NCBI GenBank assembly: GCA_964592195.1
Contig: CAZQEI010000007.1
Location: 5,082-69,081 of the forward strand
Length of the DNA: 64,000 nucleotides
Source of the DNA: an uncultured Gammaproteobacteria bacterium
Lineage (GTDB): Bacteria; Patescibacteriota; Patescibacteriia; UBA11705
Direction of reading: 5' to 3'
A program made the position numbers and the translations under genes. Under the pieces are notes generated by a model. The model saw only the letters and a list, made by a program, of their open reading frames with translations. It was not told the origin of the DNA and did not search any database. Below are positions 41,204-61,909 of the stretch, one piece after another. Every line of letters begins with the position of its first letter. The first letter of the stretch is position 1.

Positions 41204-41569
41204 ATGCCCAGTAAAATTTTAATCGCAGAAGATGAAAAACCAATGGCTCGGGCTTTGGTTTTGAAATTAACCAAAGAAGGCTTTGATGCTCAGAGTGCTG
41301 GAGATGGCGAAGAAGCTTTGCAAATCTTAGAAAAAGGTGGAATCGATCTTATGCTTTTGGATTTAGTTATGCCAAAGTTGGATGGCTTCGGAGTGTTGAA
41401 GGCAGTAAAAGAAAGAAAAATTAAAGTTAAAATAATTGTTAGTTCCAATCTTAGCCAGACTGAAGATTTTAACAAGGCAAAAGAATTGGGAGCGTTGGAT
41501 TTTATGGTGAAGTCAAATGTTTCACTCAGCGAAATCGTAGAAAAAGTAAAAAAATATCTAAACGAATAA
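41204..41569 (+). CDS. stand-alone response-regulator receiver (CheY-like)
   Basis: ILIAEDE...D54-equivalent in LLDLVMPKLDG...K. Confidence 0.8.
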   Translation: MPSKILIAEDEKPMARALVLKLTKEGFDAQSAGDGEEALQILEKGGIDLMLLDLVMPKLDGFGVLKAVKERKIKVKIIVSSNLSQTEDFNKAKELGALDFMVKSNVSLSEIVEKVKKYLNE

Positions 41570-41590
41570 AAAGCTTAACAAGCCAAACAT

Positions 41591-43384
41591 ATGGCTAATA
41601 GGAAGGGGACTACTGAGGTCAAGGCCAAAGTAGAAAAAAACAAATCAAATAAAGGTAATCTCGAAGGTCAAACCAAAGCCAAGGTTATAACGCAGGAAGT
41701 GAAACCCGAGGCAGCGGCCAAGAAGTTGACTGACGAAAGTTTGGGAAAGGTATTGCTCGAGCAGAGTTACATCTCGGCTGATGATTTGAAGGCAGCGGAA
41801 AATTATACAAAGTCCGGGCGCGGTAAGCTCACGGAGTTTTTATTATCCAATGGAATTTTGAATAAAGATTTATTGGGCCAAGCTGTAGCTGAGTATTACA
41901 AGGTTCCTTATGCTGATTTAAATACTAATACTCCAAAGCGCGATCAAGTTTTAAAAATTCCAGAATCCTTGGCCATGCAATATCGGGCAGTCTTATATCG
42001 TGAAGATGCGAAAACTGCAGTTATTACCACTGATGCTTTGGTGGAAATGCCACCACTATCAGGTTTTCAACCTTTATTCCCAGGGAAAAAGGTGGTTTTG
42101 GCATATTCAATTTCTGATGATATTGATTTTGTCCTCGGTTACTACAAAAAGTCTCTCGAAACGCAATTCTCAAAGATTATCGAAAACCAAGCTAGGATTG
42201 CGCCTGAGTTGTTGGAAGTTATTTTCAAGGACGCTTTGGCACAAAAAGCATCAGATATTCACTTTGAACCAAACGAAAAAGATGTCTTAGTCCGCTTCAG
42301 AGTTGATGGTCTTTTGTATGCCGCTGGTCATTTACCGGTCAAATTTTATCAAAACATTTTAAATCGCGTCAAAGTTTTGAGCAATATGCGCATTGATGAG
42401 CACTATGCAGCTCAGGATGGTGCTATTCGTTTCTTTGATGATAATCACGAGAAGGTAGATATGCGTGTGTCAGTCAGCCCTACTATCGAAGGTGAAAAGA
42501 TTGTTATTCGTTTGCTCAGTCATTATATCCAAAACTTTTCTTTGGCAGATTTAGGTTTGTCTGATGCTCATCGTGAAATGGTGGCCAAGGCTGCGGCGAA
42601 ACCTTTTGGTATGATTCTCGTTACCGGTCCGACTGGATCAGGCAAGACTACAACTTTGTATTCATTGTTGAAACTGTTAAATAGCTCGGATGTTAATATT
42701 ACTACTATTGAAGACCCGGTAGAATATCGATTGGCCGGTGTCAATCAGATTCAGGTAAATGCTGCTACAAATTTAACTTTTGCGAAAGGTTTGCGTTCTA
42801 TTGTGCGTCAAGATCCGGATATTATTTTGGTGGGCGAAGTTCGTGATACGGAAACTGCTGAAATTAGTGTGAATGCGGCTTTGACCGGACATTTATTATT
42901 ATCAACTTTCCATGCCAACGATGCAGCCTCAGCTATCCCTCGTTTGTTGGATATGGGTGTAGAACCATTCTTGATTTCTTCTACCTTGGAAATAATTGTG
43001 GCACAGCGTTTAGTTCGTCATATTTGTGATAATTGTAGAGTTAGTATGATTATGACGAAGAAGCAAGTGGAGGATAAATTTACCGGCGCCAGTAAGTATT
43101 TTACTGAAGAGCAAAATACGGTTTATGAAGGCAAGGGTTGTCATTTATGTAATAATACTGGCTATCGCGGACGTACTGCTATTTTTGAAGTTATTACCAT
43201 TACTCCAGAAATGGAAGAGTTAATTGTTAAAAGTCCATCGACCAAAGAAATTTGGGATTTGGCCAAAAAACAAGGTGCCAGCTCAGTCTTTGAAGATGGT
43301 ATTTTGAAAATTCGGGAGGGAATTACCACGATTGATGAATTGTTGCGTGTAGCTGAACCGCCAGTTGAACAAGTTGTTAGTTAA
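41591..43384 (+). CDS. pilB: type IV pilus / T2SS assembly ATPase (PilB/GspE family) with Lys-rich N-terminal extension
   Basis: T2SSE_N-like domain, Walker A GPTGSGKTT, Asp and His boxes, tetra-Cys CDNC...CHLC. Confidence 0.9.
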   Translation: MANRKGTTEVKAKVEKNKSNKGNLEGQTKAKVITQEVKPEAAAKKLTDESLGKVLLEQSYISADDLKAAENYTKSGRGKLTEFLLSNGILNKDLLGQAVAEYYKVPYADLNTNTPKRDQVLKIPESLAMQYRAVLYREDAKTAVITTDALVEMPPLSGFQPLFPGKKVVLAYSISDDIDFVLGYYKKSLETQFSKIIENQARIAPELLEVIFKDALAQKASDIHFEPNEKDVLVRFRVDGLLYAAGHLPVKFYQNILNRVKVLSNMRIDEHYAAQDGAIRFFDDNHEKVDMRVSVSPTIEGEKIVIRLLSHYIQNFSLADLGLSDAHREMVAKAAAKPFGMILVTGPTGSGKTTTLYSLLKLLNSSDVNITTIEDPVEYRLAGVNQIQVNAATNLTFAKGLRSIVRQDPDIILVGEVRDTETAEISVNAALTGHLLLSTFHANDAASAIPRLLDMGVEPFLISSTLEIIVAQRLVRHICDNCRVSMIMTKKQVEDKFTGASKYFTEEQNTVYEGKGCHLCNNTGYRGRTAIFEVITITPEMEELIVKSPSTKEIWDLAKKQGASSVFEDGILKIREGITTIDELLRVAEPPVEQVVS

Positions 43385-43398
43385 AAAAAAGGGGGAAT

Positions 43399-44562
43399 AT
43401 GGGAAAACAAGAAAACAAAAAAACAATAAAACAAAAAAGCAAAGAGAATAATAATATAAATAGCAAAAAGTTTGATTTTGCTGAGTTTTGGCGTAAATAT
43501 TTTGTGCGCTATTTTGGTTGGAGCTGGAGAAAAGAGAAAGAATATTTAGTTGAGAACTTGGCTATGTTGTTAACTTCAGGTATGGATATTACTTTGGCCT
43601 TGAAGGCTATCCAATCTGAAATGAAAAGTGCTTTTTTAAAAAAGGTTTTACAAGAAGTCAACGATGATATTACCAATGGTTCCCCGATTTGGGAAGCGAT
43701 GCGCAAGAGTCAGCTTTTTCCAGAGTATGTGATTGCCTTGATTCGCGTTGGTGAAGAGTCTGGTCAGCTAAATGAAAAATTGAAAGTGGTATCAGAGCAA
43801 GAAAAAAGACAAAGAGTTTTAAAATCTCGAATCACTGCGGCTTTGAGTTATCCAGTGTTAATAATATTGTTAACCTTAGTCGTGGGTGTGGCGATCAGCA
43901 CCTTTGTTTTGCCCCGTTTTGTTATGTTGTTTGGTCAAATTGATAAAGAATTGCCGGTAGCCACTAAAGGTTTGATTTGGTTAAGTTCATTTCTAGTAAA
44001 TAATGGTGTTTGGGCTGTGCCAATGTTCTTTGTGTTACTCGCGTTAACGGTATTTTTTGTCTTCATGTTTCCCAAAACCAAATTTATGGGTCAGTGGTTG
44101 TTTTTTCATCTGCCGGTAACAAAAAATTTGGTGCAAGAAATTGAAATTGCGCGTTTTGGTTCCAACTTGGGAACTTTATTAAAAGCTGGTTTGCCAGTGG
44201 GAGATGCTTTGGAAGCCTTGATTCGCTCGGTGAGTTTTTATAATTATAAAAAATTCTATTCATTTATAAAATCGCACGTCATGGATGGTGATACTTTTTT
44301 GCAAGCATTCAATAGCTATCCTCGTAGCCATAAACTGTTACCATTGTCTATCCAGCAAATGATCGGTTCGAGTGAACAATCTTCTTTCTTAGCGGAAAGT
44401 TTGATGGGGCTGGCGGAGGTTTACGAAGTGAAAACTGATATTACTGCCAAAAATTTAACGACCCTTTTAGAGCCAGTTTTGTTGATCTTTATCGGATTAG
44501 CAGTCTTGGGTGTGGCACTGGCTATTATTTTGCCGATTTATGGCTTGATAAATAATTTGTAA
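43399..44562 (+). CDS. pilC: type IV pilus platform protein (PilC/GspF family)
   Basis: Two GspF repeats, 3 TM helices, conserved ALSYP / LLEPVLLIFIG motifs. Confidence 0.85.
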   Translation: MGKQENKKTIKQKSKENNNINSKKFDFAEFWRKYFVRYFGWSWRKEKEYLVENLAMLLTSGMDITLALKAIQSEMKSAFLKKVLQEVNDDITNGSPIWEAMRKSQLFPEYVIALIRVGEESGQLNEKLKVVSEQEKRQRVLKSRITAALSYPVLIILLTLVVGVAISTFVLPRFVMLFGQIDKELPVATKGLIWLSSFLVNNGVWAVPMFFVLLALTVFFVFMFPKTKFMGQWLFFHLPVTKNLVQEIEIARFGSNLGTLLKAGLPVGDALEALIRSVSFYNYKKFYSFIKSHVMDGDTFLQAFNSYPRSHKLLPLSIQQMIGSSEQSSFLAESLMGLAEVYEVKTDITAKNLTTLLEPVLLIFIGLAVLGVALAIILPIYGLINNL

Positions 44563-44567
44563 TAAAC

Positions 44568-45002
44568 ATGAAAAGATCGGGCTTCAGTCTTTTAGAAATG
44601 TTAATCGTGATTACTCTATTGGGACTGCTAGCGGCATTGTCCTTTCCTTTTTATAATCCTCTAGTGGCTCGTCATAATATCGCTAGTGCACGCGATACAG
44701 TAGTCCGTAGTTTGCATCGTACCCAGCTGTTATCCATGGCAATGGCTAATGATACGACTTGGGGTATTCATTTTGAAGCGGGGAAGGTAGTGATTTTCAA
44801 AGGTGCAACCTATATCGGACGTGATGCTGCTTATGATCAGGTAAATACTCTTGCCAGTAATATAACTTTTTCAGGCTTAAATGATTTTATTTTTACTAAG
44901 TTTGACGGTTACCCCGCCAGCACCGGAACAATTACCATTACCGGAGGGAATAGCGAAACAAAAACCATTACCTTGAATGCGAAGGGGATGGTTAGCTATT
45001 AA
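44568..45002 (+). CDS. prepilin-type (class III signal) pilin/pseudopilin
   Basis: MKRSG|FSLLEMLIVITLLGLLAA, with G at -1 and E at +5. Confidence 0.8.
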   Translation: MKRSGFSLLEMLIVITLLGLLAALSFPFYNPLVARHNIASARDTVVRSLHRTQLLSMAMANDTTWGIHFEAGKVVIFKGATYIGRDAAYDQVNTLASNITFSGLNDFIFTKFDGYPASTGTITITGGNSETKTITLNAKGMVSY

Positions 45003-45066
45003 GATAATAAATCGCTACGAATGACATATTTGCTACGAAACTACGAATAATATTTCCAATACGTAG

Positions 45067-46845
45067 ATTTGTAGCCGATTCGTTATTAGTAGTAAATATC
45101 TGCTTACAGAGAATAAACAAAAAACAGGTTACAGTCTCGTCGAAGCGTTGCTTGCCATCGCTTTGTTTGCGTTAATTGCATCTGGATTAGCGGGTAGTTT
45201 GATTTATGGATATTTCTCAACCTCATTGGCTGGCACTAGAGAACGAGCGGCTTTCATTGGGGAAGAAGGTTTAGATGCTAGTCATAATATTCGGGATGCG
45301 GCTTATACAAACTTGGTAAATGGAACTACTGGGGTGTCCGTGGCTAGCAATGTTTGGACTTTTTCTGGAGCTTCGGATACTACCAATGGAATTACTCGCG
45401 CAATAACAATTGCGGACGCTGGTTCCAATCGTAAGCAATTAACTGAAGCGGTGACTTGGACGCAAATGACAGGTCGCGCCGGTAGTTTTAATTTGGTGAC
45501 ATATTTAACTAATTGGAGAAGAGTGGGTGTGGCTTTGTATAATGCATTATTAATATATGGTGATGGTACAACCAGTCCGAAATATAGAACCTATAATAAT
45601 ACTACTAACGTTTTTAGTACAGAAACAACCACTGTTACAAATGCGGTCTCTCCGACATTTATAATGAGAACCTCTCCAACAAAATCAGAAGCAATCGCTG
45701 CTTTTTATAATTCTTCCGGAGATATGTATGTCATGTGTTTTGATGGTACAACATGGACCGATGAGTGGAATGTAAGTGTTGGCGGTACTGGTGCTGGGAG
45801 AAGAGTCGATGTAGCTTATGAAACAGCGTCAGGCGATGTAATGGTCTTATATAGTACTAATACCGCGACAACAAACGAGTTAAACTATCGGACTAAGGCA
45901 GGAAGCGCAGGCTGCGGCACTGTGAATTGGTCGGCCGCTCAAAATCTTAACCCTGTTAGAACTGCGAATATCATTAATTATATCCGTTTGGCTTGGGATC
46001 GTCGCGCCGGACAAAATTTAATTGCTGCAACCTGGGTGGATATCAGTGATGACTTGTCGAGCGCCATTTGGACAGGATCAGCCTGGACGAATGAACCAGC
46101 GACAGTTTCAGATACCAATGTTGAAAGGGTGTCAGTTGGGCATGATCTAGAAAATATGGATATTGAATATGAGTCATTGTCTGGAGATGTCATGATGGTT
46201 TGGGGTACCACCGTTGGTAATAATGCGAATGGTGTCCGATATCGAACTTGTAATGGCGGCACATCATCTTGCACTTGGAGCGCTGTGACGACTCCCCCAA
46301 CATTTAATGATGACGCTACCAACCTTGATTTATCTGCGAATCCAAATACCGACCAAATGGTTTTTGCCTCTATTGGAGAGAATCAGCGCGATTTACAAAT
46401 AGGCTATTGGAGTGGGACTACTTGGACGAATACAGCAAACGTAGATACTTCATGCAATACTCCTTTTGCTGGTTCCAAGTTGGTTTCGACGGGATGGTTG
46501 ATAAATGGTGCCACGACAAGGTCGGTAGTCCTTTATGAAGATCAGAATTCGAACAGCCTTAATTGGTATGTTGGAAATGTTGGTGTTTTTACTGTTCAGG
46601 GGGACTTCGTTGTTTTTCCTGCTCCTGTCAATCCAAATGGTTATTATGATATTCAAATGAATCCGCTTAGCAAAGATCAGCTGATGTTTTGTTTCTCAGA
46701 TAATAATAATGATTTATTCTGTAAACGTTTAGCTATGTCAGCCGTGCCGGCTTTTACATGGACAAATTCCGATGGTGCTGTTTTAGAAACAACTTTACCT
46801 CAAAAGATAACTAGCCCATTTGCGTTTGCGTATTGGAGACAATGA
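45067..46845 (+). CDS. large pilin-like protein with prepilin N-terminus (start codon uncertain)
   Basis: KQKTG|YSLVEALLAIALFALIASG prepilin motif at 45118-45190. No ATG/GTG/TTG upstream in frame back to the stop at 45064. Thr/Ser/Asn-rich body. Confidence 0.55.
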   Translation: MCSRFVISSKYLLTENKQKTGYSLVEALLAIALFALIASGLAGSLIYGYFSTSLAGTRERAAFIGEEGLDASHNIRDAAYTNLVNGTTGVSVASNVWTFSGASDTTNGITRAITIADAGSNRKQLTEAVTWTQMTGRAGSFNLVTYLTNWRRVGVALYNALLIYGDGTTSPKYRTYNNTTNVFSTETTTVTNAVSPTFIMRTSPTKSEAIAAFYNSSGDMYVMCFDGTTWTDEWNVSVGGTGAGRRVDVAYETASGDVMVLYSTNTATTNELNYRTKAGSAGCGTVNWSAAQNLNPVRTANIINYIRLAWDRRAGQNLIAATWVDISDDLSSAIWTGSAWTNEPATVSDTNVERVSVGHDLENMDIEYESLSGDVMMVWGTTVGNNANGVRYRTCNGGTSSCTWSAVTTPPTFNDDATNLDLSANPNTDQMVFASIGENQRDLQIGYWSGTTWTNTANVDTSCNTPFAGSKLVSTGWLINGATTRSVVLYEDQNSNSLNWYVGNVGVFTVQGDFVVFPAPVNPNGYYDIQMNPLSKDQLMFCFSDNNNDLFCKRLAMSAVPAFTWTNSDGAVLETTLPQKITSPFAFAYWRQ

Positions 46846-46970
46846 TTTCATTGAACATCGATCAAGGATCATTGATCATTGAACGTGAAGCAGCAAAGAA
46901 TAATTTAAAATTTTTCTAATCGTTGCACGTTTAACGCTTAACGAATTACGCTTTACGAATATCGAAAAAA

Positions 46971-47504
46971 ATGGCAAATATTATCACAACCAAATTTCAA
47001 ACAAACAAACGAGGTTTTACTCTCGTGGAATTTGTGATTTATGTTGGCATTGTGGCTCTGATGATAACCAGTTTAAGTTCATTTTTAATCATGGCAGTAT
47101 CGGCAAGAACTAAAGCAGAAGCAGTGGCGAATGTGGAAGAGCAGGGTATTGCGGCCATGCAAAGAATTACACAAACGATAAGAAACGCAACTAGTATTAC
47201 CGCTCCTAGTATTGGCACCAGTAGTGCAACTGGAGCGACCGTGGTTGTCCCAACCGGTGCGTTAAGTCCGACTTTGTTTAATTTATCATCAGGTGTTCTT
47301 CAAATGAAAGAAGGGGCTGGCGCGTATGTTGATTTAACTTCCAGTCAAGTAGTCGTTTCAGGTTTAACTTTTTATAATGTATCGAGACCGAGTACTTCTG
47401 GATCAATGAAAATACAATTTACAGTTTCAACACCAGCTACAAGTGTCGCTCCGCATTTTACCTATTCAAAAACTTTTAATGGAACCGCTACTTTAAGACC
47501 ATAA
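46971..47504 (+). CDS. minor pilin (prepilin-type N-terminus)
   Basis: KRG|FTLVEFVIYVGIVALMITS. Confidence 0.7.
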   Translation: MANIITTKFQTNKRGFTLVEFVIYVGIVALMITSLSSFLIMAVSARTKAEAVANVEEQGIAAMQRITQTIRNATSITAPSIGTSSATGATVVVPTGALSPTLFNLSSGVLQMKEGAGAYVDLTSSQVVVSGLTFYNVSRPSTSGSMKIQFTVSTPATSVAPHFTYSKTFNGTATLRP

Positions 47505-47508
47505 TAAA

Positions 47509-47910
47509 ATGAAGAAATTGATTCACAACAAAACCGGATTTGCCTTGATTGTTATGGTTTTGGTTATGGGAGCGGTGGCTCTGACTGTGGTGACAGTAGT
47601 TTTTGCCTTGGGAATTGGCTCCACTATGACTAGTACCGAGTTCGTGGCTTCTCATCAAGCCAAGGCTTTGGCAAACGCTTGTGCTGAGGAAGCTTTGGAG
47701 CAAGTCCGAGCGAGTACGGCCTACACTGGTACTGGAAGTCTAAGTTTGAGTACTGGCAGTTGTTCCTATACGGTTAGCAATACTGGTGGAGAAACGCGAT
47801 CTATTACTACTAACGCTACGGTTAGAAATATGACTCGTCGGGTGGCGATCACGGTGACTGCGATTAATCCATATATTACTATTTCTTCATGGCAGGAAGT
47901 GGCGAATTAG
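47509..47910 (+). CDS. minor pilin, PilX-like
   Basis: KTG|FALIVMVLVMGAVALTVV. No Glu at +5. Confidence 0.6.
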   Translation: MKKLIHNKTGFALIVMVLVMGAVALTVVTVVFALGIGSTMTSTEFVASHQAKALANACAEEALEQVRASTAYTGTGSLSLSTGSCSYTVSNTGGETRSITTNATVRNMTRRVAITVTAINPYITISSWQEVAN

Positions 47911-48135
47911 ATTTGAGCGATTAGCGGTTGGCGAAGAGCGATTAGGGATATGAATTATGAATTAAGGGAATAGGAACCGGTAACCCGTAACCAGTAACTA
48001 GTAATCAGTAATCGGTAACCCGTAACCAGTAATAAGTAATACGTAATATGCAACTAAAATCTATAATCTTTTAACGTTTATCGTATCACGAATAACGCTT
48101 TACGAATTACGAATATCGTTTAACGAATAACGAAC
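47911..48135. repeat. degenerate 9-bp tandem array (GAGCGATTA, GTAACCAGT, CGTATCACG/TTACGAAT units) ending at the sensor kinase start
   Basis: ttgagcgattagcggttggcg...gtaacccgtaaccagtaactagtaatcag...cgtatcacgaataacgctttacgaattacgaatatcg. Confidence 0.7.
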
Positions 48136-48149: not shown

Positions 48150-50978
48150 ATGAAACTATTTAGCAGTTTGAAAAACAAAATATCCTTCCTGATATCAGGC
48201 TTAATTTTAATTACCGGTTTGGCGGTGGTATTTTTAGTCTTCTTTTTGACCTCTAGTTTTTTCATTCAAGAAAAAAAGGCTGATTTTGTTGCTACTATTT
48301 CAGAGCAAGTGCATGAATCGTCTCGGGTTTTTGCCGAGGCACAGCGGACTGTTCAAGCGTTGAGTGCTCATGAGATGATAGTGAAATATTTTTCTGAAAA
48401 TATCCCAGCTTATCAGGATGCGGCAGTTTTGAACGAGCTAAATAGCATGAATATTGGTCTACAATATAGCGCAATATATTTGTTGAATTTGGATGGCCTG
48501 GCTTTGGTTTCCACTGATCCTCGTTTTGTCAATCAGGATTATGCTTTTCGAGAATATTTTCAAGTGGCTAAAGCTGGGAAACTGGGAGTTATGATGGCAG
48601 TAGGCGTGACCAGTAATGATCCAGGCTATTATTTTTCCGCTCCAGTTTTTAACCAAGATAAACAAGTGATTGGAATCGCAGTAATGAAATTAGATCCAAA
48701 AATTTTAAAGATTACTTTGGAACAAAGTGTTTTGTCGCGTTCGGGAAAATTAATGCTAGTAGATAAATCAGGCGTTATCTTATATTCAAATACTGAGGGT
48801 CGATTATTCAAAAGCTTGGGGGCCTTGTCTGCTCGAGAAATGGAAGTCATTATTACTGAACAAAGATTCTATAATATTGAAATATTACCTCTCCAATATG
48901 AATTAGTTCAAGAAAGGTTACGAAAACCAGTTAATAGTGTAGAATCATTTGAATTTTATGATTCAGAAGACGCTGAAAATGAGTTAATAGTTATCGCGCC
49001 TATTGAAAATGCTCCATTTTTCATAGTTTTGGAAGTAGATATGGATCAAGTCAATATGATTGCTTTTCAGATAGCTGGCTTGTTGGGGGTTTTTGTGCTA
49101 TTTTTGATAATCATTTCCGTAATAGCCAGTATTTTTGGTGTGGCTAGATTATTAAAACCTTTAATCTACTTGAAGAAGAACATTGAAGCTATTGGGCGGG
49201 GTGAAACTGTCAGTGTCAATCAAATTAAAACTAAAGATGAATTACAAACTATTGGTGAATCAGTAGTCTCAGCCTCAAAATTATTGCAGTCCAGTTATAA
49301 AGAGTTGGAAGATCGTGTAGCGGAAAGAACTGAAGCCTTGCAGGCATCTTTGAAGAAAGTTGATGTGACAAAGTCGGCTATTTTAAACGTATTGGATGAT
49401 GTGAATAAGGAACGGGATCGCACGAAACAGTTGGCTGATGATTTAGTTAAATTTAAACAAGCGGTGGAAAATGCCTCTGATCATATTGTGATTACCGACG
49501 CGAACGGTATCATACTGCATGCCAATCAAGCAGTAGAGAAAATTACCGGTTTCAAGATAAAAGATGTCTTGGGTAAAAAAGCTGGTAGTAAAGAGCTCTG
49601 GGGTGGTTATATGGATGAGGAATTTTATAAAAAGTTTTGGGATACTATAAAAAACAAGAAAAAAGTGTTTGTTGGAGAAATTACCAATAAACGTAAAAAT
49701 GGTGAAAAGTATCAAGCTGAAGCAGCGGTGTCTCCCATTTTAGATGATAATGGCGAGGTGAAGTTTTTCCTGGGTATTGAACGAGATATTAGTGAACGTA
49801 AAGATGCGGAAGAGCAGGTACGAAAGGTTTTGAATGATTTACAAGAGAAGAGTTATGTCTTAGCTCAGGAGAAGTCCAAAGACGAAGCTTTGTTAGCCGG
49901 TATCGGAGACGGTATCATCTCTACTGATCAAGATGGTGTCGTGAATATTATCAATCGTTCGGCTGTAGATATGCTTGGTTACTCAGAAAAAGATGTGATG
50001 GGTAAGTCCTTTATTGATACAGTAAAAATTGTTGATAGCAAGGATAATGAAATATCAATGACCGAACATCCATTGGTCTTGGCGTTATCAAACGTAGAAA
50101 AAACCACCACCCCGATTGGAAAGACTAATTATTTCAAGCGTCATGACGGTACTAAATTCGCCGCTGGTATCACCGCTTCTCCGTTTGTGTTGAATGGTAG
50201 AATTGTGGGCGTCATCTTAGTCTTCCGTGATGTTAGTCGTGAAAAAGAGGTTGATATGGCGAAGACTGAGTTTGTGTCTTTGGCCTCACATCAATTGCGC
50301 ACGCCGTTGTCCACTATCAATTGGTACGCAGAAATGCTTTTAGCTGGAGATGCTGGAAAAATTACTGGCGAACAAAAAGAGTATGTAAGTGAAATTTACA
50401 AGGGCAATCAGCGTATGGTGGAATTGGTGAATGCTTTGTTGAATGTCTCGAGAATCGAATTAGGCACTTTCTCGGTAGAGCCGGAAGATACAGATTTGAA
50501 AGAATTGGCGGAAAGCGTATTTGATGAATTGAAGCCTCAGTTATTAACCAAGAAAATGAAGGTGACTAAGAAGTACGATGAAAAATTAAAGCATTTATTT
50601 GTGGACAAGAAACTGATTCGTATCGTTTTCCAAAATTTGTTGACCAATGCTTTGAAATATACCCCAGAAAAGGGCAAAATTGATTTGAATATTCAAAAAC
50701 GCAAGAGTGATATCTTGGTAAGTGTGACTGATACTGGTGCTGGTATTCCCAAGAAGGATCAACAAAACATATTCCAAAAATTGTTCCGTTCTGACAATGT
50801 TAAAGCTCTCGATACCAATGGAACTGGGTTAGGTTTGTATATAGTTAGATCTATTGTTGAGCAATCTGCCAAGGGTAAAATTTGGTTTGAGTCTGAAGAG
50901 GGGAAAGGGACTACCTTCTATGTTTCTCTGCCTTTGACCGGTATGAAGGCCAAAGAGGGGACTAGAGCACTCACCTAA
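48150..50978 (+). CDS. sensor histidine kinase: TM, dCache-like extracytoplasmic domain, TM, coiled-coil/HAMP, two PAS domains, HisKA, HATPase_c
   Basis: H-box SHQLRTPLSTI, N-box, G-box GTGLGLYIVRSIV. PAS segments at about residues 430-660. Confidence 0.85.
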   Translation: MKLFSSLKNKISFLISGLILITGLAVVFLVFFLTSSFFIQEKKADFVATISEQVHESSRVFAEAQRTVQALSAHEMIVKYFSENIPAYQDAAVLNELNSMNIGLQYSAIYLLNLDGLALVSTDPRFVNQDYAFREYFQVAKAGKLGVMMAVGVTSNDPGYYFSAPVFNQDKQVIGIAVMKLDPKILKITLEQSVLSRSGKLMLVDKSGVILYSNTEGRLFKSLGALSAREMEVIITEQRFYNIEILPLQYELVQERLRKPVNSVESFEFYDSEDAENELIVIAPIENAPFFIVLEVDMDQVNMIAFQIAGLLGVFVLFLIIISVIASIFGVARLLKPLIYLKKNIEAIGRGETVSVNQIKTKDELQTIGESVVSASKLLQSSYKELEDRVAERTEALQASLKKVDVTKSAILNVLDDVNKERDRTKQLADDLVKFKQAVENASDHIVITDANGIILHANQAVEKITGFKIKDVLGKKAGSKELWGGYMDEEFYKKFWDTIKNKKKVFVGEITNKRKNGEKYQAEAAVSPILDDNGEVKFFLGIERDISERKDAEEQVRKVLNDLQEKSYVLAQEKSKDEALLAGIGDGIISTDQDGVVNIINRSAVDMLGYSEKDVMGKSFIDTVKIVDSKDNEISMTEHPLVLALSNVEKTTTPIGKTNYFKRHDGTKFAAGITASPFVLNGRIVGVILVFRDVSREKEVDMAKTEFVSLASHQLRTPLSTINWYAEMLLAGDAGKITGEQKEYVSEIYKGNQRMVELVNALLNVSRIELGTFSVEPEDTDLKELAESVFDELKPQLLTKKMKVTKKYDEKLKHLFVDKKLIRIVFQNLLTNALKYTPEKGKIDLNIQKRKSDILVSVTDTGAGIPKKDQQNIFQKLFRSDNVKALDTNGTGLGLYIVRSIVEQSAKGKIWFESEEGKGTTFYVSLPLTGMKAKEGTRALT

Positions 50979-51023
50979 TGTTAATAAGTTTTTATATAAA
51001 TATGCTACAATAATAATGGCTAA

Positions 51024-51407
51024 ATGCCGAAGTTTTGTAGTTTAATTAAAAAAAAATCCTTCTTCGCACGATCAAAAAAACATGAAAGAAAAGAGCCAGT
51101 GGATTTCGAGCCAGGGAATGATAGCGGTAAATATGCTGATGAAGCGATTGACAATTTGATCTTGGGAATTACTAGAAACGGAGGTGCAAAGAAAAATTTA
51201 ATTGCCAAGTTGGTCGGCGGAGCCGCCATGTTCCAAAAATTGATTAATACGGAAAATGGTATTGGTCATCAAAATATTGAAGCGGCGAGAGAACGATTGA
51301 CTGAATTAGGGATTAGAATTGATAAAGAAGATACTGGTGGTAATACGGGGAAATTGGTAGAATTTGATTTACGCAATGGACTGGTGACGGTTCAAACAAG
51401 TTTGTAA
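51024..51407 (+). CDS. CheD-like protein truncated to the C-terminal half (catalytic Cys/His region absent); possible remnant or pseudogene
   Basis: KYADEAIDNLI...AKLVGGAAMFQ...IGHQNIEAARERL...EDTGGNTGKLVEFDLRNGLVTV aligns with the CheD C-terminus. An in-frame stop lies immediately upstream of the ATG. Confidence 0.55.
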   Translation: MPKFCSLIKKKSFFARSKKHERKEPVDFEPGNDSGKYADEAIDNLILGITRNGGAKKNLIAKLVGGAAMFQKLINTENGIGHQNIEAARERLTELGIRIDKEDTGGNTGKLVEFDLRNGLVTVQTSL

Positions 51408-51503
51408 CATTACGAATATACGAATTTCTTAAGAATATTTTCGAATTATTGTTAAAGAGATAATTCGTAACAATTCGAAACTGATTCGTAAATTCGAAAT
51501 TCA
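51408..51503. repeat. ~90-bp TTACGAAT/ATTCGTAA imperfect palindrome
   Basis: acattacgaatatacgaatttc...ttttcgaatt...taattcgtaacaattcgaaactgattcgtaaattcgaa. Ends 3 nt before the CheY-like start. Confidence 0.6.
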
Positions 51504-51505
51504 AT

Positions 51506-51874
51506 ATGAAGAAAACAATTTTATTAGTCGAGGACGAAGAATCTTTGCGACACGCATTGAAAATTAAGTTAGTGAATGCTGGGTATGAAGTGATAGAGGC
51601 AGAGAACGGTAAGGTGGGGTTGGATATGGCTTTGAGACATCAGCCAGATTTAATTCTCCTCGATATTGTTATGCCGGTAATGGATGGGGTGACTATGTTG
51701 GAAAAATTGCGTGCCGATGATAAGGGTGCCAATTTAGATGTTATAATGTTAACTAACTTAAATGATACCGGTAAAGTGGAATCAGCTGAGAAATCGGATG
51801 TTTCAGATTATTTGATTAAAACTGATTGGACTTTGCAAGATTTATTAAAGTTAATTGAGAAAAAAATTGGTTAA
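51506..51874 (+). CDS. stand-alone response-regulator receiver (CheY-like)
   Basis: ILLVEDEESLRHAL...LLDIVMPVMDG...K. Confidence 0.85.
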   Translation: MKKTILLVEDEESLRHALKIKLVNAGYEVIEAENGKVGLDMALRHQPDLILLDIVMPVMDGVTMLEKLRADDKGANLDVIMLTNLNDTGKVESAEKSDVSDYLIKTDWTLQDLLKLIEKKIG

Positions 51875-51885: not shown

Positions 51886-51916
51886 AAAAATAGCTCGTTT
51901 TCACGAGCTATTTTTG
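51886..51916. terminator. bidirectional rho-independent terminator
   Basis: TAGCTCGttttcACGAGCTA flanked by A-run and T-run, between convergent genes. Confidence 0.7.
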
Positions 51917-51923: not shown

Positions 51924-52397
51924 TTATCTAGTAACTTCGATTTCATCAGCTTGTTCTGGGTTGCAGGCTCCAACAGTTAAGGCACCTGAAACATCTCTTT
52001 TAATATAGTAATCAGTAACAGTTGAGTCACCTGATGATGGATCGACTGGGACTTTGGGTAGATATTTTGCGTCAATCAAATCTTCTATGTCCGCACAACT
52101 GGGAGAAGTAGTGTGAGCCGTACATCCGATATCACCACCCACTGAGCAAGTGCCAATCATATAGTATGTGTCAACTAGTAAACTACCTATTGAGGTTGGG
52201 AAGTTACCATTGTTGTCAACTTGCCGATATTTAGCGGCATCGAGGACTGCTGTGACATCTGACCAGCGATTCGCATCGCGGGCTTGTTCAAACCGAGTGA
52301 GTGGGTCGAGCATGACGAAAATAATTATCGCCAAGATAGCGATGATCCCAATCACAATTAAAAGTTCAATTAAAGTGAACCCTTTTTTGTTTTTCAT
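51924..52397 (-). CDS. type IV pilin (prepilin class III), 157 aa, copy 1
   Basis: MKNKKG|FTLIELLIVIGIIAILA. Four Cys in the C-terminal half. Confidence 0.8.
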   Translation of the reverse strand: MKNKKGFTLIELLIVIGIIAILAIIIFVMLDPLTRFEQARDANRWSDVTAVLDAAKYRQVDNNGNFPTSIGSLLVDTYYMIGTCSVGGDIGCTAHTTSPSCADIEDLIDAKYLPKVPVDPSSGDSTVTDYYIKRDVSGALTVGACNPEQADEIEVTR

Positions 52398-52573: not shown

Positions 52574-53047
52574 TTAACGACTAACAGTGATGGCCGCGCC
52601 ACCTTCAGGATCGCACGCACCGACGGTTAAAACACCGGTGGAGGCTCTCATGATGTAGTAATCGGTTTCAACAGCAGTGCCGGTCGAGGGATCTAGTGGT
52701 ACTGCGGATAAATGGCCGGAGGTAACTAGACCGGTCAAATTCGCACATGCGGCTTGGGTGGTTTGAGCAGTACAACCAGAATCACCACCGGTGGCACAAG
52801 TGCCGATAGTGTAATAATTACCGGCAGTTAATCCGCTTATGGTGGCAATATATGAACCGCCATTGTCAACTTGGTTGAGTTTAGCGGCATCTAGTACTGC
52901 TCCGATATCAGCCCAACGCGTTGCGTCTCGAGCATCTTGGAAGCGGGATAACGGATCGAGCGCTACGAATACGATAACTGCCAAAATAGCAATAATCGCA
53001 ATTACGATGAGCAATTCGATCAAGGTAAAACCTTTTTGTTTTCTCAT
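52574..53047 (-). CDS. type IV pilin, 157 aa, copy 2
   Basis: MRKQKG|FTLIELLIVIAIIAILA. Near-identical to copy 3. Confidence 0.8.
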   Translation of the reverse strand: MRKQKGFTLIELLIVIAIIAILAVIVFVALDPLSRFQDARDATRWADIGAVLDAAKLNQVDNGGSYIATISGLTAGNYYTIGTCATGGDSGCTAQTTQAACANLTGLVTSGHLSAVPLDPSTGTAVETDYYIMRASTGVLTVGACDPEGGAAITVSR

Positions 53048-53172: not shown

Positions 53173-53646
53173 TTAACGGCTAACAGTAATGGCTGCGCCA
53201 CCTTCAGGATCGCACGCACCGACGGTTAAAACGCCTGTAGATGCTCTCATGACATAATAATCGGTTTTAGAGGCTGTACCGGTGGAAGGATCCAATGGCA
53301 CGGCTGACAAATGTCCAGAAGTGACCAAACCGGTCAAGTCTGCGCAAGCGGCAACAGTAGTTTGAGCTGTACAGCCTGTATTTCCACCAGTTACACAAGT
53401 GCCAACGGTGTAATAAGTACCGGCAGTTAATCCGCTTATAGCGGCAATGTAGGAACCACCATTATCAACTTGGTTGAGTTTAGCGGCATCTAATACTGCT
53501 CCGATATCAGCCCAACGCGTTGCGTCTCGAGCATCTTGGAAACGAGATAAGGGATCGAGTGCCACGAACACGATGACCGCCAAGATAGCGATGATCGCAA
53601 TCACGATGAGCAACTCAATCAATGTAAAGCCTTTTTGTTTTCTCAT
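53173..53646 (-). CDS. type IV pilin, 157 aa, copy 3
   Basis: Identical N-terminal 80 aa to copy 2. Substitutions cluster in the C-terminal half (AAISGLTAGTYYTVGTCVTGGNTG vs ATISGLTAGNYYTIGTCATGGDSG). Confidence 0.8.
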   Translation of the reverse strand: MRKQKGFTLIELLIVIAIIAILAVIVFVALDPLSRFQDARDATRWADIGAVLDAAKLNQVDNGGSYIAAISGLTAGTYYTVGTCVTGGNTGCTAQTTVAACADLTGLVTSGHLSAVPLDPSTGTASKTDYYVMRASTGVLTVGACDPEGGAAITVSR

Positions 53647-53864: not shown

Positions 53865-54614
53865 TTACGCATTTTTTCCAACTTCCCAAAAATAATCAAA
53901 TACACTTTCCCAACTCTTAATAATTTCTGGATGAGAAATGGCCGTTATAAATGGTGGATGACCGGAGAAGAATACTATTTTATCTGGTAATACCCAGAAA
54001 GATGAAGTGAACTCAACCCCCTTAGGCAAGAATCTAACTTCAATCGGTTGGCGTTTTATTTTGTTCGGATTGATTTCACGTTCAGTGTCAACGCTGATTA
54101 AAGTTCGAGTTTGCAAGTTATTTTTTGTTTTTTGATCCAGTAAAATAAACTCGGTGTCATCAGAAAGTATTTTTGTGTAATCGCCACGGTGGGGTGAATC
54201 AAAAGTTTTAATGACTGTTCCGCGGGGGAGTGATGATATGGTGTTTTTTATGAAATTTTTAATACTTTCTTTTGTGTCATAAACTTGGGCGGTGGGAAAA
54301 GCATTTTCGTGTCGGTAAAGATCTCTTAACTGATCCTTCAAGCTTGTTGCCAGTTGGGCTTGGCTAAGAAAATGTCCCTCAAGTGCTTGCGGACTTTCCA
54401 CCCAATAATATTTTGCACCGCGGTGAGTATTACAAGACACAAAACCGCGTTCAGTTAACAAATTTAAAATGCTGATCACAGTGGTTCGCGGTAAGTTAAC
54501 TTTTTTGGCTACGCGAGAAGCTACAGCTTCGCCGAGTAAAGTTAAGCCGAGATAGACTTTAATTTCGTTGGTTTTGAAACCAAGTTCTTTGAGCGTGGAT
54601 TGGATTTGATTCAT
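53865..54614 (-). CDS. TrmB-family-like HTH transcriptional regulator
   Basis: N-terminus LKELGFKTNEIKVYLGLTLLGEAVASRVAKKVNLPRTTVISILNLLTERGFV resembles a TrmB wHTH. C-terminal domain is unassigned. Confidence 0.5.
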   Translation of the reverse strand: MNQIQSTLKELGFKTNEIKVYLGLTLLGEAVASRVAKKVNLPRTTVISILNLLTERGFVSCNTHRGAKYYWVESPQALEGHFLSQAQLATSLKDQLRDLYRHENAFPTAQVYDTKESIKNFIKNTISSLPRGTVIKTFDSPHRGDYTKILSDDTEFILLDQKTKNNLQTRTLISVDTEREINPNKIKRQPIEVRFLPKGVEFTSSFWVLPDKIVFFSGHPPFITAISHPEIIKSWESVFDYFWEVGKNA

Positions 54615-54619
54615 AGCAT

Positions 54620-54716
54620 TTCGAATTTGCGAATCAGTTACGAATATTTACGAATTATTTCCATAGCCAATAATTCGAACACATTCGAACAAAATTCGTA
54701 CATTCGTAGTTAATTA
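54620..54716. repeat. ~95-bp TTACGAAT/ATTCGTAA imperfect palindrome directly upstream of the TrmB-like gene
   Basis: tcgaatttgcgaatcagttacgaatatttacgaatt...taattcgaacacattcgaacaaaattcgtacattcgtag. Confidence 0.6.
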
Positions 54717-57464: not shown

Positions 57465-57541
57465 TGGTCGGGGTGAGGGGACTTGAACCTCCGACCTCAC
57501 GCACCCGAAGCGTGCGCTCTAGCCAACTGAGCTACACCCCG
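57465..57541 (-). tRNA. tRNA-Pro (anticodon CGG)
   Basis: Hand fold of the minus strand: C1-G72 acceptor CGGGGTG/CACCCCG, D arm GCTC-AGTTGGCTA-GAGC, anticodon stem CACGC/GCGTG, loop TTCGGGT, T-loop TTCAAGT, A73-CCA encoded. Confidence 0.8.
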
Positions 57542-57665
57542 ACGATAATTTAATTGATAATGGCGGTGCTATGCATCGGATACATGGCGTGCCATCCGTA
57601 GCGCAGGCTTTATCTTGCCCTTCTTCGCATAAAGCTACGAAGGGCATCCTTCGCTGCGCGAAGGA

Positions 57666-57753
57666 TGGTGGGCGGGGAGAGATTTGAACTCTCATGAGGT
57701 TGCCCCCACTGCGCTCTGAACGCAGCGCGTCTACCAGTTTCGCCACTCGCCCA
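57666..57753 (-). tRNA. tRNA-Leu (anticodon CAG), long variable arm
   Basis: GGGCGAG-TG-GCGAAACTGGTAGACGC, anticodon stem CTGCG/CGCAG, loop TTCAGAG, variable arm 17 nt, T arm GAGAG-TTCAAAT-CTCTC, ACCA. One A-C mismatch in the acceptor stem. Confidence 0.75.
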
Positions 57754-57906
57754 TGCAATTTTAAATTCTAAGCACTAAATTTGAAATTCTAAAAAATATG
57801 TGGAGTGCCATTCGTAGCTCGCGTCATTGTTATTGTCACGAACTACTATATTGGTCCTCCTTCGCTGAAGCTACGGAGGACATTCTTCGCTCTAGCGAGC
57901 GAAGAA

Positions 57907-57984
57907 TGGTGGACCTGAGGGGAGTCGAACCCCTGACCTCTGCAATGCGAATGCAGCGCTCTAGCCAAACTGAGCTACAGGCCC
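57907..57984 (-). tRNA. tRNA-Ala (anticodon CGC) with G3-U70
   Basis: Acceptor GGGCCTG/CAGGTCC includes G3:U70. Anticodon stem CTGCA/TGCAG, loop TTCGCAT, T arm AGGGG-TTCGACT-CCCCT, ACCA. Confidence 0.8.
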
Positions 57985-58127
57985 ATGATTTATTGTAACG
58001 TAGCGAAGGTGCTGGGCAAACTGCTTGTCCCGCAGAAACGAAGTGTATGCGGGAAGCTACAGGCCAATGATGTTTGTTAATGGTCGGGCTGATCCCGCTG
58101 AGCGGGACGGCCTCATTTATCTCATGT

Positions 58128-58204
58128 TGGTCGGGCTGACTGGACTTGAACCAGCGGCCTCATGCACCCCATGCATGCGCTCTAGCCAACTGAGCTACAA
58201 CCCG
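58128..58204 (-). tRNA. tRNA-Pro (anticodon GGG)
   Basis: C1-G72 acceptor CGGGTTG/CAGCCCG, anticodon stem CATGC/GCATG, loop ATGGGGT, T arm GCTGG-TTCAAGT-CCAGT, ACCA. Confidence 0.8.
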
Positions 58205-58516: not shown

Positions 58517-60202
58517 ATGCGTTTACCGGATGAAAAAATCTTGGGAGTTTTGAACAAAAATAAAGTTATTACCAATAAAGAAGGCGAAGATTTAATCGCC
58601 AAAGCCGATGAACAAAAAGTTTCATTGTTTGATTATGTAATTGGTAAAGATTTAATTGATCGAGATAAGCTCGGTCGCATGGTAGCCAAGGATTTTGGTG
58701 TGAATTATATTGATTTATCTAAAACAACGGTTGACCCGGAGGTTTTGAAATTGATGCCTGAGATTGTGGCGAAGAAAAGTGTGGCTGTGGTTTTCGGTCA
58801 TGATAAGAACGGTGTTCATTTGGCCGTCAATGATCCAGAAGATAAAGATTTTATAAAAAACTTTTCCAAACGAGTGGATGATGAAGTGGTTGTGTATTTC
58901 GCTGATATGGAATCTTTGGGTCATGTTTTGAATCAATTCGCCGCACAGGTTGGAGATGAAGACTTGGAGAAATTAATTCGGGGTGCAGGTGAAGGCGAGG
59001 GCAGCCAGGGAAAAGATTTACCGGTAATTAAAATTGTCGACCGTATTTTAGCTTTGAGTTACAATAACAAAGCCTCAGATATTCACATTGAACCATTTGA
59101 TGAAGTCACCTATATTCGTTTTCGCATTGATGGTATCTTGCATGATATTATTTCCATCCCAAAAAACCTGGAAGATTTGATAGTTACTCGTATTAAAATA
59201 TTAGCCAGGTTGAGAACCGATGAACATCGAGCCGCACAAGATGGTCGTTTACGCTTTGTCGTAGATGGTGCAAAGGTAGATGTCCGTGTTTCTATCGTGC
59301 CAGTGATTCACGGAGAAAAGATTGTTATGCGGTTATTGTCTGAACGTTCTCGACAATATGATCTGGAAAATTTAGGATTCAGTCCGGCGGATTTGAAAAA
59401 GATTCAAAATAATATTGATAAGCCGTGGGGCATGATTCTGGCCACCGGACCAACCGGTTCGGGTAAAACCACTACCTTGTATGCCATTTTAAAAAAACTG
59501 TATAGTCGTGAAGTAAACATCTCGACGATTGAAGATCCGGTGGAATACGACATGGAGGGGATCAATCAAATTCAAGTAAATGCTGCCACCAATCTAACTT
59601 TTTCTGATGGTTTACGAGCCATTGTTCGTCAAGATCCCGATATTATCATGGTGGGAGAAATTCGTGATCAGGAAACTGCTAGTATAGCCATTAACTCCGC
59701 TATGACCGGACATTTAGTTCTATCAACATTGCATACTAATGATGCTCCTACCACCTTACCGCGATTGTTAGATATGGGAATCAAATCATTTTTAGTGGCG
59801 TCAACTGTTAATATTGTAGTTGGGCAACGTTTAGTGCGTAAAATTTGTACCGAATGTAAATATCAGACGCATGCGAGTCCTGAAACTATAAAATATATTG
59901 AGAAACAACTATCATCAGACATTATAAAAAAATTCAAGCTCTTGGATAAAAGTACCCAGTTCTCCTATGGTAAAGGTTGTGCTAATTGTCAAAATACCGG
60001 CTTTAAGGGGCGTCAAGGTATTTATGAGATCATGGATATGACCGAGGAATTAAAAGCTTTAATTATGGAACGCGCTAACGCTTCTATCATTCGCGCCAAA
60101 GCGATTGAGCAAGGCATGACTACCATGGTGGAGGATGGCATCCGAAAACTTTTAGAAGGCATCACCACGGTAGAAGAAGTGTTGCGTGTGACAAGAGAGT
60201 AA
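58517..60202 (+). CDS. pilB: second PilB/GspE-family assembly ATPase
   Basis: T2SSE_N-like N-terminus, Walker A GPTGSGKTT, tetra-Cys CTEC...CANC. Paralog of the 41591 gene. Confidence 0.9.
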   Translation: MRLPDEKILGVLNKNKVITNKEGEDLIAKADEQKVSLFDYVIGKDLIDRDKLGRMVAKDFGVNYIDLSKTTVDPEVLKLMPEIVAKKSVAVVFGHDKNGVHLAVNDPEDKDFIKNFSKRVDDEVVVYFADMESLGHVLNQFAAQVGDEDLEKLIRGAGEGEGSQGKDLPVIKIVDRILALSYNNKASDIHIEPFDEVTYIRFRIDGILHDIISIPKNLEDLIVTRIKILARLRTDEHRAAQDGRLRFVVDGAKVDVRVSIVPVIHGEKIVMRLLSERSRQYDLENLGFSPADLKKIQNNIDKPWGMILATGPTGSGKTTTLYAILKKLYSREVNISTIEDPVEYDMEGINQIQVNAATNLTFSDGLRAIVRQDPDIIMVGEIRDQETASIAINSAMTGHLVLSTLHTNDAPTTLPRLLDMGIKSFLVASTVNIVVGQRLVRKICTECKYQTHASPETIKYIEKQLSSDIIKKFKLLDKSTQFSYGKGCANCQNTGFKGRQGIYEIMDMTEELKALIMERANASIIRAKAIEQGMTTMVEDGIRKLLEGITTVEEVLRVTRE

Positions 60203-60203
60203 T

Positions 60204-61478
60204 ATGGTCAAAAAAACAATAAAACAAGAAAACCCGCCAGAGGCGGATCAGCCTCCGGCTGACAAGAAAGCAATAAAGCAAGAAAATAAAGAATTGAAAA
60301 AGCGTAAAGAATCAAAAATAACTTTTGAAGAACCGCCAGTGGATCTCGATAAGGTTGAAGAAAAGGTTGTTAAAAAAATCAAGGTGGAGAAGCCTTCGGT
60401 TGAGGATGTGGTTAAAAAAGCCAAACAACCGATTTATCTTGGTGGTGTGTCGCGCAAGACGATTTTGTATTTTACTAAGAACTTGTCAATTTTATTGAGA
60501 ACTGGGTCCACGGTTTCAGAATCATTGGAAGTACTCAATGTGGAAGTCAAAGATCAGTTTCATAAGATTTTACAGCAAATTATTGATGATGTGCAACGAG
60601 GGGTGTCTCTTAGTGACGCTCTGGCTGAGCATCCCAAAGTGTTTGCTGAGTTGTATGTAAATATTGTAAAAATTGGCGAGGAATCTGGTAATCTTGAAAA
60701 GAACTTGGAATATCTTGCGCAACAATTGAACAGCTCATATCAACTGAGAAAGAAAATCGTGGGTGCCATGATTTATCCAATTATTATTCTTTCTGGTATT
60801 TTTTTCCTAGGGACAGGTTTGGCTATTTATATCTTGCCCAAGATTAGTCAACTGTTTCGCAGTTTCAAGATCAAACTACCGTGGACAACTAATATGTTAA
60901 TTAGTTTGTCTGATTTTATGCAAAAGCATGGTTTTGCGACATTGATGATTATTATCGCGACCTTTATTGCAGTGGTAGTCATTAGAAGAATAAAAGTGAT
61001 TAAACCATTTTTACATTCCATAGTCCTGAAAACACCGGTAGTCGGGCGTATTTCAAGACATTTCAACTTGTCCATGTTTTATCGTAGTCTTTCCATCTTA
61101 TTGAAAAGTGGAGTGACGATTGATGAGGCATTGAAGGTGGTAAGCAAGACAACTACCAACATGGTTTATCGCAATTTTATTTTAGCCACTTGTACCAGTA
61201 TTAAATCAGGTGAAAGCTTGTATGATATTTTGCATCGTAATAGCAAGCTGATTCCCCCGACAGATTCACAGATCATCAATGTGGGGGAGGCCTCTGGCAC
61301 CATGTCAGATTCATTGTCATATATCGCGGAAATACACGAGGAAGAGTTAAATGATATCACTCGCAACTTATCCAGTATCATTGAACCGGTATTATTCATT
61401 TTCTTGGGTGTGGTGGTGGCGATTTTGGCTATGTCAATTATTACTCCAATTTATTCTATTACCGGTCAATTTAAATAA
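60204..61478 (+). CDS. pilC: second PilC/GspF-family platform protein with about 70-aa Lys/Glu-rich N-terminal extension
   Basis: Two GspF repeats, 3 TM helices. Start overlaps the pilB2 stop (TAATATG). Confidence 0.85.
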   Translation: MVKKTIKQENPPEADQPPADKKAIKQENKELKKRKESKITFEEPPVDLDKVEEKVVKKIKVEKPSVEDVVKKAKQPIYLGGVSRKTILYFTKNLSILLRTGSTVSESLEVLNVEVKDQFHKILQQIIDDVQRGVSLSDALAEHPKVFAELYVNIVKIGEESGNLEKNLEYLAQQLNSSYQLRKKIVGAMIYPIIILSGIFFLGTGLAIYILPKISQLFRSFKIKLPWTTNMLISLSDFMQKHGFATLMIIIATFIAVVVIRRIKVIKPFLHSIVLKTPVVGRISRHFNLSMFYRSLSILLKSGVTIDEALKVVSKTTTNMVYRNFILATCTSIKSGESLYDILHRNSKLIPPTDSQIINVGEASGTMSDSLSYIAEIHEEELNDITRNLSSIIEPVLFIFLGVVVAILAMSIITPIYSITGQFK

Positions 61479-61480
61479 TT

Positions 61481-61909
61481 ATGCATAAAGGTTTTACATT
61501 GTTAGAGATGATGGTGGCGCTGGGAATTATTATCCTCTTGGCCGCTGTGACTGTGCCTTTTTATAACCAAATTTCTTTCTCGCGCACGACTGAATCAGCC
61601 AGAGGAGAATTAACGTCTGTATTACGTTTAGCGGCCAGCCAAGCCTCGGCCAGCCAGAATGATAGCGCTTTTGGTGTCTATATTTTATCCAATCATTATA
61701 TTTTATTCCGAGGCAATAGTTATGCCAGCCGGATAGCAGTAGAAGATCGTAGTTTTGATTTACCTGCGGGAATTACTTTGTCTGGTTTGAATGAAGTGGT
61801 TTTTGCCAAACAAACTGGATTACCCAATGTTACGGGAACGATTAGTTTAATTAATCAATTGGGACAAACCATGACGGTTTCTATAAATTCACAAGGCTTG
61901 ATATATTAA
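61481..61909 (+). CDS. prepilin-type pilin/pseudopilin
   Basis: MHKG|FTLLEMMVALGIIILLA. Confidence 0.8.
   Translation: MHKGFTLLEMMVALGIIILLAAVTVPFYNQISFSRTTESARGELTSVLRLAASQASASQNDSAFGVYILSNHYILFRGNSYASRIAVEDRSFDLPAGITLSGLNEVVFAKQTGLPNVTGTISLINQLGQTMTVSINSQGLIY

Follow-up and report, generated by a model that had tools for sequence, protein, structure and literature searches.

A 5′-truncated cheD beside pilus genes in a Patescibacteria contig: probable remnant of a deleted chemosensory operon

In a 64,000-nucleotide stretch of contig CAZQEI010000007.1 (GenBank assembly GCA_964592195.1, placed in the Patescibacteriota by GTDB), hereafter the window, we analyzed a 127-codon open reading frame (ORF) that is homologous to the chemoreceptor deamidase CheD and lies between the genes of a sensor histidine kinase (HK) and a single-domain response regulator (RR). 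This ORF, here called cheD′, is probably the 3′ part of cheD that survived, without function, a 6–7 kb deletion of a pilus-linked chemosensory operon, and the window seems to show a lineage at a stage where a che stub is still present. Since relatives have the order HK...CheD-RR where the window has HK, cheD′, RR, a deletion is the simplest account. Remnants of genes truncated at the 5′ end are a well-known outcome of deletion in reduced genomes, and the finding is of this known kind. It would represent an ordinary step in genome reduction, with the pilus-linked chemosensory operon lost and a gene stub left behind, and a clean snapshot of operon loss with the flanking kinase and receivers kept. 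For annotators, the ORF is no evidence of chemotaxis capacity.

Homology and missing part of the CheD-like ORF

The ORF product matched the Pfam CheD family (PF03975) with an E-value of 1.8e-25 and a score of 89.6 bits (gathering score 25), ORF residues 32–125 corresponding to profile positions 14–108 of 108, and it covered positions 57–147 of 160 in the NCBIfam model for CheD of the Thermotoga maritima type. The NCBIfam CheD equivalog models have cut-offs of 223–369 bits; with 77.9 bits against the best of them (NF041119, cut-off 240), the ORF did not reach equivalog level. By BLASTP, homology to the closest relatives begins at ORF residue 16, equivalent to residue 53 of the 162-aa CheD encoded at a related locus (L001). 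An alignment with 10 full-length homologues (153–174 aa, 42–57% identical) showed the ORF to be without the N-terminal segment of about 50 residues in which the invariant GSxGSC and GGxAHxMLP motifs are situated.

A full-length relative (P0002) matched T. maritima CheD (PDB 2F9Z chain C) at E=5e-27, and by comparison with this protein the absent segment holds the catalytic cysteine and histidine. We take the cysteine of GSxGSC to be Cys27 in the T. maritima numbering of the 2F9Z literature, and the histidine of AHxMLP is presumably His44. Neither motif occurs in the ORF: the GSC columns and the His column are each 100% conserved in 80 relatives, and the homology of the ORF resumes just past AHxMLP. 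A cysteine at ORF residue 5 has no motif context and is surrounded by sequence without significant homology. Deamidase activity on receptor glutamines would not be expected from the 127-aa product because both the Cys and the His are missing. An earlier sequence-only reading of this DNA had described the ORF as the C-terminal half of CheD, starting right after an in-frame stop and lacking the N-terminal Cys/His catalytic segment. The homology holds and so does the missing segment, and a TAA (51021–51023) does abut the ATG; the extent was underestimated, the portion kept being the C-terminal two-thirds (112 of ~162 residues) and not a half.

We used AlphaFold2 to model the fragment and the full-length relative with an identical 11-sequence alignment, structure prediction being one of the checks that the sequence-only reading had proposed. 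The full-length model reached a mean predicted local distance difference test score (pLDDT) of 85.7 and a predicted template modeling score (pTM) of 0.85, and it matched 2F9Z_C at E=4e-16 with template modeling (TM) scores of 0.76–0.81. For the fragment the mean pLDDT was 55.8 (below 30 for residues 1–32) and the pTM 0.47, and the match to 2F9Z_C was at E=4e-4 with TM scores of 0.44–0.51. The beta-strands at residues 4–7, 12–16, 20–23, 30–36 and 41–47 of the full-length model, five of its nine, have no counterpart in the fragment.

Compared with CheD as represented by PF03975, 2F9Z_C and the Bacillus subtilis protein, the ORF is thus homologous over residues ~53–162 and keeps the GGAxMF, IGxxN and EDTGG motifs, but it is without the part that contains the Thr/Cys/His catalytic residues and five beta-strands, and no cheC, mcp or cheA adjoins it. 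It is homologous to CheD yet fails the features that define the enzyme (Cys, His, complete fold, equivalog score and che neighborhood), and is therefore not to be filed as CheD.

Gene order in relatives and the size of the loss

The order in the window is HK, 45 nt, cheD′, 98 nt, RR (Table 1), and Pfam places type IV pilus genes on both sides of this locus. Queries for methyl-accepting chemotaxis protein (MCP), CheW, CheY, CheB, CheA, CheC and CheD from two relatives, run by tblastn over the whole 64 kb, found only the C-terminal part of CheD and receiver domains. These results agree with the sequence-only reading, which had put the ORF in a signaling module next to a pilus locus, between a dCache-PAS histidine kinase and a CheY-like receiver, with no CheA, CheW or MCP gene nearby. 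One of its two interpretations, a decaying chemotaxis remnant, gains direct support as a remnant from the synteny described below, the decay itself not being visible in the retained part.

We fetched 80 CheD loci from species-representative genomes. The Cys and His columns were intact in all 80, leaving the window as the sole exception seen; one or more other che genes were present in 79 of the loci, and cheC lay directly upstream of cheD in 71. Four of the five closest relatives of the flanking kinase have the order HK-MCP-CheW-(CheC-like)-CheY-CheB-CheA-CheC-CheD-RR. On a 111-kb Taylorbacteria contig (L002), which bears P0002, the closest CheD in a word-indexed search, along with a kinase of the same architecture as that of the window, the genes read HK (937 aa)-MCP-CheW-195 aa-RR-CheB-CheA-CheC-CheD (164 aa)-RR-RR; the order from HK to CheD is the same on a Parcubacteria contig (L001). 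The closest kinase homologue (P0161, 54%) is encoded on a 111-kb contig with HK-MCP-CheW-192 aa-RR-CheB-CheA-CheC-CheD (162 aa)-RR, and the CheD of that contig (P0012, 57%) is the best full-length match of the ORF in a library of 1.84 billion proteins. A further locus with a kinase 45% identical (L083) has HK-MCP-CheW-CheY-CheB-CheA-CheC-CheD-RRa-RRb-PilB, where RRa corresponds to the window receiver at 51506 (49%), RRb to the receiver at 41204 (58%) and PilB to the gene at 41591.

Both flanks of cheD′ thus have their counterparts beside the che operon of relatives. The window kinase, which the L001 and L002 kinases match over essentially its full length at 41–60% identity, corresponds to the left-hand neighbor of the operon in L001, L002, L083 and the P0161 contig, where the kinase gene immediately precedes mcp. 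Receivers that follow cheD in L001, L002, L009 and L083 are 47–53% identical to the receiver at 51506, which is, as judged from sequence, orthologous to the receiver directly after cheD in relatives. Orthologous flanks therefore enclose an intact and longer gene set in the relatives. In L001, L002 and L083, the kinase stop and the position at which cheD homology sets in again are 7.3, 7.0 and 6.4 kb apart, respectively, versus 90–147 nt in the window.

A deletion of roughly 6–7 kb would have taken out the che operon between the dCache-PAS kinase and the single-domain response regulator, the losses being mcp, cheW, a CheC/CheX-like gene, cheY, cheB, cheA, cheC and the first ~50 codons of cheD. 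Its left breakpoint would fall shortly after the kinase gene, in the promoter region of the old operon or just beyond it and before ORF residue 16, and its right breakpoint just past the codon for the catalytic histidine of cheD. A fortuitous ATG, 15 codons ahead of the point where homology resumes, would then open the 127-codon frame. The product, if made, would be without Thr, Cys and His, without five of the nine CheD beta-strands and without its usual partners at the locus, and would therefore most likely be a non-functional remnant that has not yet decayed.

With the pilus-linked che operon of Patescibacteria (L001, L002, L005, L008, L083 and the P0161 contig) the window shares the left-hand kinase, the right-hand receiver and the nearby pilus gene families, but it is without the whole core from mcp to cheC. 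A che cluster followed by PilB, PilC and pilins was seen in L005, L008, L010, L017 and L036. In relatives the receiver/PilB/PilC/pilin block lies downstream of cheD and its receiver, whereas in the window it lies upstream of the kinase, implying at least one further rearrangement. The first gene of this block (41204–41569) encodes a receiver that shares 57–58% identity with two receivers of relatives, the second of those that follow cheD in L083 and the one encoded ahead of the kinase in L081. At L081 (9601–14101) and L082 (941–5441), an orthologous kinase (49% identical to that of the window) has a receiver in front of it and unrelated genes behind it, the first for a 399-aa protein without a Pfam match, and there are no che genes; the window is thus not alone in having this kinase without the operon. 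These two loci either lost the whole operon independently or have an alternative arrangement that is ancestral.

Across loci L001–L036, L083 and the P0161 contig, the recurrent Patescibacteria order is a dCache-PAS kinase, MCP, CheW, a CheC/CheX-like protein of ~195 aa, CheY, CheB, CheA, CheC, CheD and one to four single-domain receivers, continuing with PilB, PilC and pilins in several of them. CheB is encoded in this operon and no CheR-sized gene is evident there, though no CheR query was run. A literature search on CheD or chemotaxis in the candidate phyla radiation or Patescibacteria, including a pilus-linked system, found nothing specific in the collection searched.

The junction, the retained part and other explanations

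The kinase stop (50978) and the ATG of the ORF are only 45 nt apart, and no CheD-like coding sequence is present between them in any of the three frames; tblastn with the full-length CheD of two relatives likewise found no N-terminal half anywhere in the window, an intact one upstream being what the sequence-only reading had said should be looked for. The kinase and the ORF share a frame, but five TAA stops in the spacer exclude read-through, and as none of the stops is TGA, an alternative code offers no rescue. A 'THLML' string in another frame (~50970–50985) is a coincidental resemblance to a CheD N-terminus and overlaps the conserved final codons of the kinase. In a split CheD, the N-terminal catalytic half would be a separate gene elsewhere and both parts would assemble into an active enzyme. 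Nothing direct speaks for this, the examined stretch being 64 kb of the genome, and against it stand the missing N-terminal half in the window, the lack of any split cheD among the 80 related loci and the loss of the genes for the substrate, MCP, from the locus as well; we consider it extremely improbable.

The spacer, at or close to the left end of the deletion, is probably where the promoter of the former che operon was kept. Its extended −10-like box (Table 1) is of the TGnTAnAAT type, and boxes of this type are present in the kinase-to-mcp spacers of L001 (TGGTATACT), L002 (TGTTATAAT) and L005 (TGGTATAAT); the argument is one of positional conservation only, the background being 45 such boxes in 128 kb (both strands of the window), or about one per 2.8 kb. 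A two-hexamer promoter scan called no promoter in the spacer. The absence of a Shine-Dalgarno motif is uninformative on the expression of cheD′ because only 11 of 53 window genes have one.

The first 15 codons of the ORF would be junction or filler sequence of the deletion. Local DNA alignment of 50979–51068 to the post-kinase/mcp 5′ regions or the cheD 5′ regions of L001 and L002 was no better than for shuffled sequences (p 0.27–0.63), the positive control of the same procedure giving p≤0.004. Two resemblances of these codons, one to an mcp start (MK.F..L) and one to the Cys region of cheD (FCSLI versus SCIVI), were rejected as chance on this basis, and they are also mutually inconsistent in order. 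No second copy of the junction sequence was found in the window.

That last result bears on an alternative in which the junction arose by misassembly or belongs to a minority variant of the sampled population, the dominant genome keeping an intact che operon. The proteins of the locus are known from a single metagenome-derived contig, and a scan of the JGI metagenomes found no independent copy of the junction, as would be the case for an artefact or a rare variant. However, both flanks are the natural, collinear neighbors of the che operon, which a real deletion gives and a chimeric join does not, and an unrepeated junction sequence offers nothing in the window to cause assembly collapse. We regard this explanation as very unlikely.

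Searches of protein libraries identified no family to which the ORF might belong. No close relative of the ORF was found in 5.8 billion proteins or in the JGI metagenomes, the nearest proteins being 57–61% identical. Among 1.84 billion protein representatives there was no coherent truncated-CheD family in the best 150 of 1888 matches. About 25 of these 150 were short CheDs, which on inspection began at MLP, MAH, LGGLAH or arbitrary internal positions. They were rejected as a natural family, being heterogeneous 5′-cut gene calls in unrelated CheD branches that form no clade.

Several observations weigh against a non-functional remnant. The retained segment has no stop or frameshift and keeps 23 of the 24 columns that are at least 80% conserved among the 80 intact CheDs, the single change being R to K, which is common in this clade. 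Its profile hidden Markov model score was 122.8 bits, versus 115.6±7.0 for intact CheDs scored by leave-one-out (84th percentile), although the loci were picked by similarity to the ORF and its score is inflated as a result. The Met-Phe columns, 100% conserved in the 80 relatives, are retained in the GGAAMF motif of the ORF as M69 and F70, and an ATG and a promoter-like box precede the retained segment. Low AlphaFold confidence is no proof of misfolding, and the partners of CheD could be encoded elsewhere, 64 kb being all of the genome that was examined. Moreover, with the nearest relatives only ~55–60% identical in protein, the breakpoints cannot be located exactly, and nucleotide-level mapping would need nearer relatives than the collections searched contain; at ~55% protein identity, synonymous sites compared with the relatives are saturated.

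Signs of relaxed constraint expected of a pseudogene (stops, frameshifts, lost conserved residues) are thus not seen in the retained part. This lack of decay would follow from either a recent deletion or a fragment under selection, and does not separate the two. Like the 5′-truncated pseudogenes of reductive genomes, the ORF is a frame with a fortuitous ATG inside a once longer gene, beside the former neighbors of a lost operon; it differs from them in showing no visible decay, so it is not formally a pseudogene from sequence alone.

If selection does keep the fragment, it could act as a non-catalytic, CheD-like adaptor whose surface, including the Met-Phe pair, binds the kinase, the receiver or a pilus component, which would couple two-component signaling to the pilus without a chemoreceptor array. 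The intact frame, the start codon directly behind a promoter-like box, and the conservation of the retained part with M69 and F70 would all fit. So would the biology of the B. subtilis protein, which binds CheC and receptors through the equivalent pair (M101/F102) and is important for chemotaxis by its binding, not by its catalysis (PMC3513319). Yet any in-gene deletion can be expected to leave an intact frame for a while, and the ORF is a singleton, no orthologue with the same truncation being present in either protein library. The fragment is without five core strands and is predicted with far lower confidence than the matched control, and the known CheD partners CheC and MCP are not in the window. 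The sequence-only reading had offered a repurposed adaptor as its second interpretation; with no conserved truncated family, poor prediction confidence and partners absent from the locus, nothing favors it, and we consider selection for an adaptor unlikely. A more specific proposal, that the C-terminal two-thirds of CheD form a stand-alone non-catalytic module, expressed from the old che promoter, through which a Patescibacteria lineage that has discarded the receptor-CheA core connects the dCache-PAS kinase and single-domain receivers to the type IV pilus, is in our judgment quite unlikely. If true, a protein of chemotaxis adaptation would have been repurposed in a minimal way, and the C-terminal part of CheD could act alone in binding.

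Neighboring genes and repeats in the window

Coordinates of the features at and around cheD′ are given in Table 1.

Table 1. Features of the cheD′ locus (window coordinates)
Feature	Position	Strand	Description
Receiver/pilus block	41204–47910	+	single-domain receiver (41204–41569), PilB-like ATPase, PilC-like platform protein, prepilin-type proteins; Pfam
Sensor histidine kinase	48150–50978	+	942 aa; Pfam dCache_1, two PAS, HisKA, HATPase_c
Kinase-to-cheD′ spacer	50979–51023	+	45 nt; extended −10-like box TGCTACAAT at 51003–51011
cheD′ ORF	51024–51407	+	127 aa
ORF codons 1–15	51024–51068	+	MPKFCSLIKKKSFFA; homology to neither CheD nor the mcp 5′ end detected; putative junction
cheD 3′ two-thirds	51069–51407	+	ORF residues 16–127, equal to residues ~53–162 of intact CheD; natural stop codon included
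Palindromic repeat element, ~95 nt	51405–51506		four ACGAAT units facing four ATTCG units; fills the cheD′-to-receiver spacer
Single-domain response regulator	51506–51874	+	122 aa; Pfam Response_reg, E=1.2e-21
Terminator-like hairpin and T run	51886–51915	+	directly after the receiver gene

The spacer between cheD and the receiver gene is 9–62 nt in relatives, and in the window it is filled by a palindromic element for which nhmmer found four copies (6027–6120, 37268–37371, 51405–51506 and 54612–54714). The four ACGAAT units of its left arm have a spacing of ~10 nt. Each copy of the element folds into a long hairpin with a z-score of about −4, and no Rfam family matched it. For two of the copies, the end coincides with a start codon, that of the receiver gene at 51506 in one case and that of a TrmB-like regulator gene at 54614 (minus strand) in the other. 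The element could be a repeat similar to miniature inverted-repeat transposable elements (MITE) or repetitive extragenic palindromes (REP), or a shared operator or leader.

A second motif, the octamer ATTCGWAA (reverse complement TTWCGAAT), occurs 31 times in the window, compared with 11.2±2.9 expected. In many cases it forms a 7-nt tandem, TTACGAATTACGAAT, no more than about 90 nt ahead of a start codon. Sites include 12007–12021, 13446–13460, 14818–14832, 46953–46960 and 48100–48114, and examples of the tandem precede the kinase gene at 48150 and the genes at 13467, 14903 and 46971. A promoter or regulator site specific to this genome is a possible explanation. Separately, a degenerate heptamer tandem array (GTAACCN / GTAATNA) extends over 47975–48050, between the last minor-pilin-like gene and the kinase.

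Two separate sets of PilB-like, PilC-like and prepilin genes are present in the window, at 41204–47910 and 58517–63690. Just beyond the receiver gene, three tandem 157-aa prepilin genes with an N_methyl motif lie on the minus strand (51924–52397, 52574–53047 and 53173–53646), each with its own upstream region and the last two ~90% identical by inspection; they look like a small pilin paralogue array, possibly with a role in pilin variation. A cluster of four tRNA genes (57468–58204, minus strand) separates a DUF3307 gene from the second pilus set, and another tRNA gene is found at 3520–3591, all of them matches above the Rfam gathering threshold.

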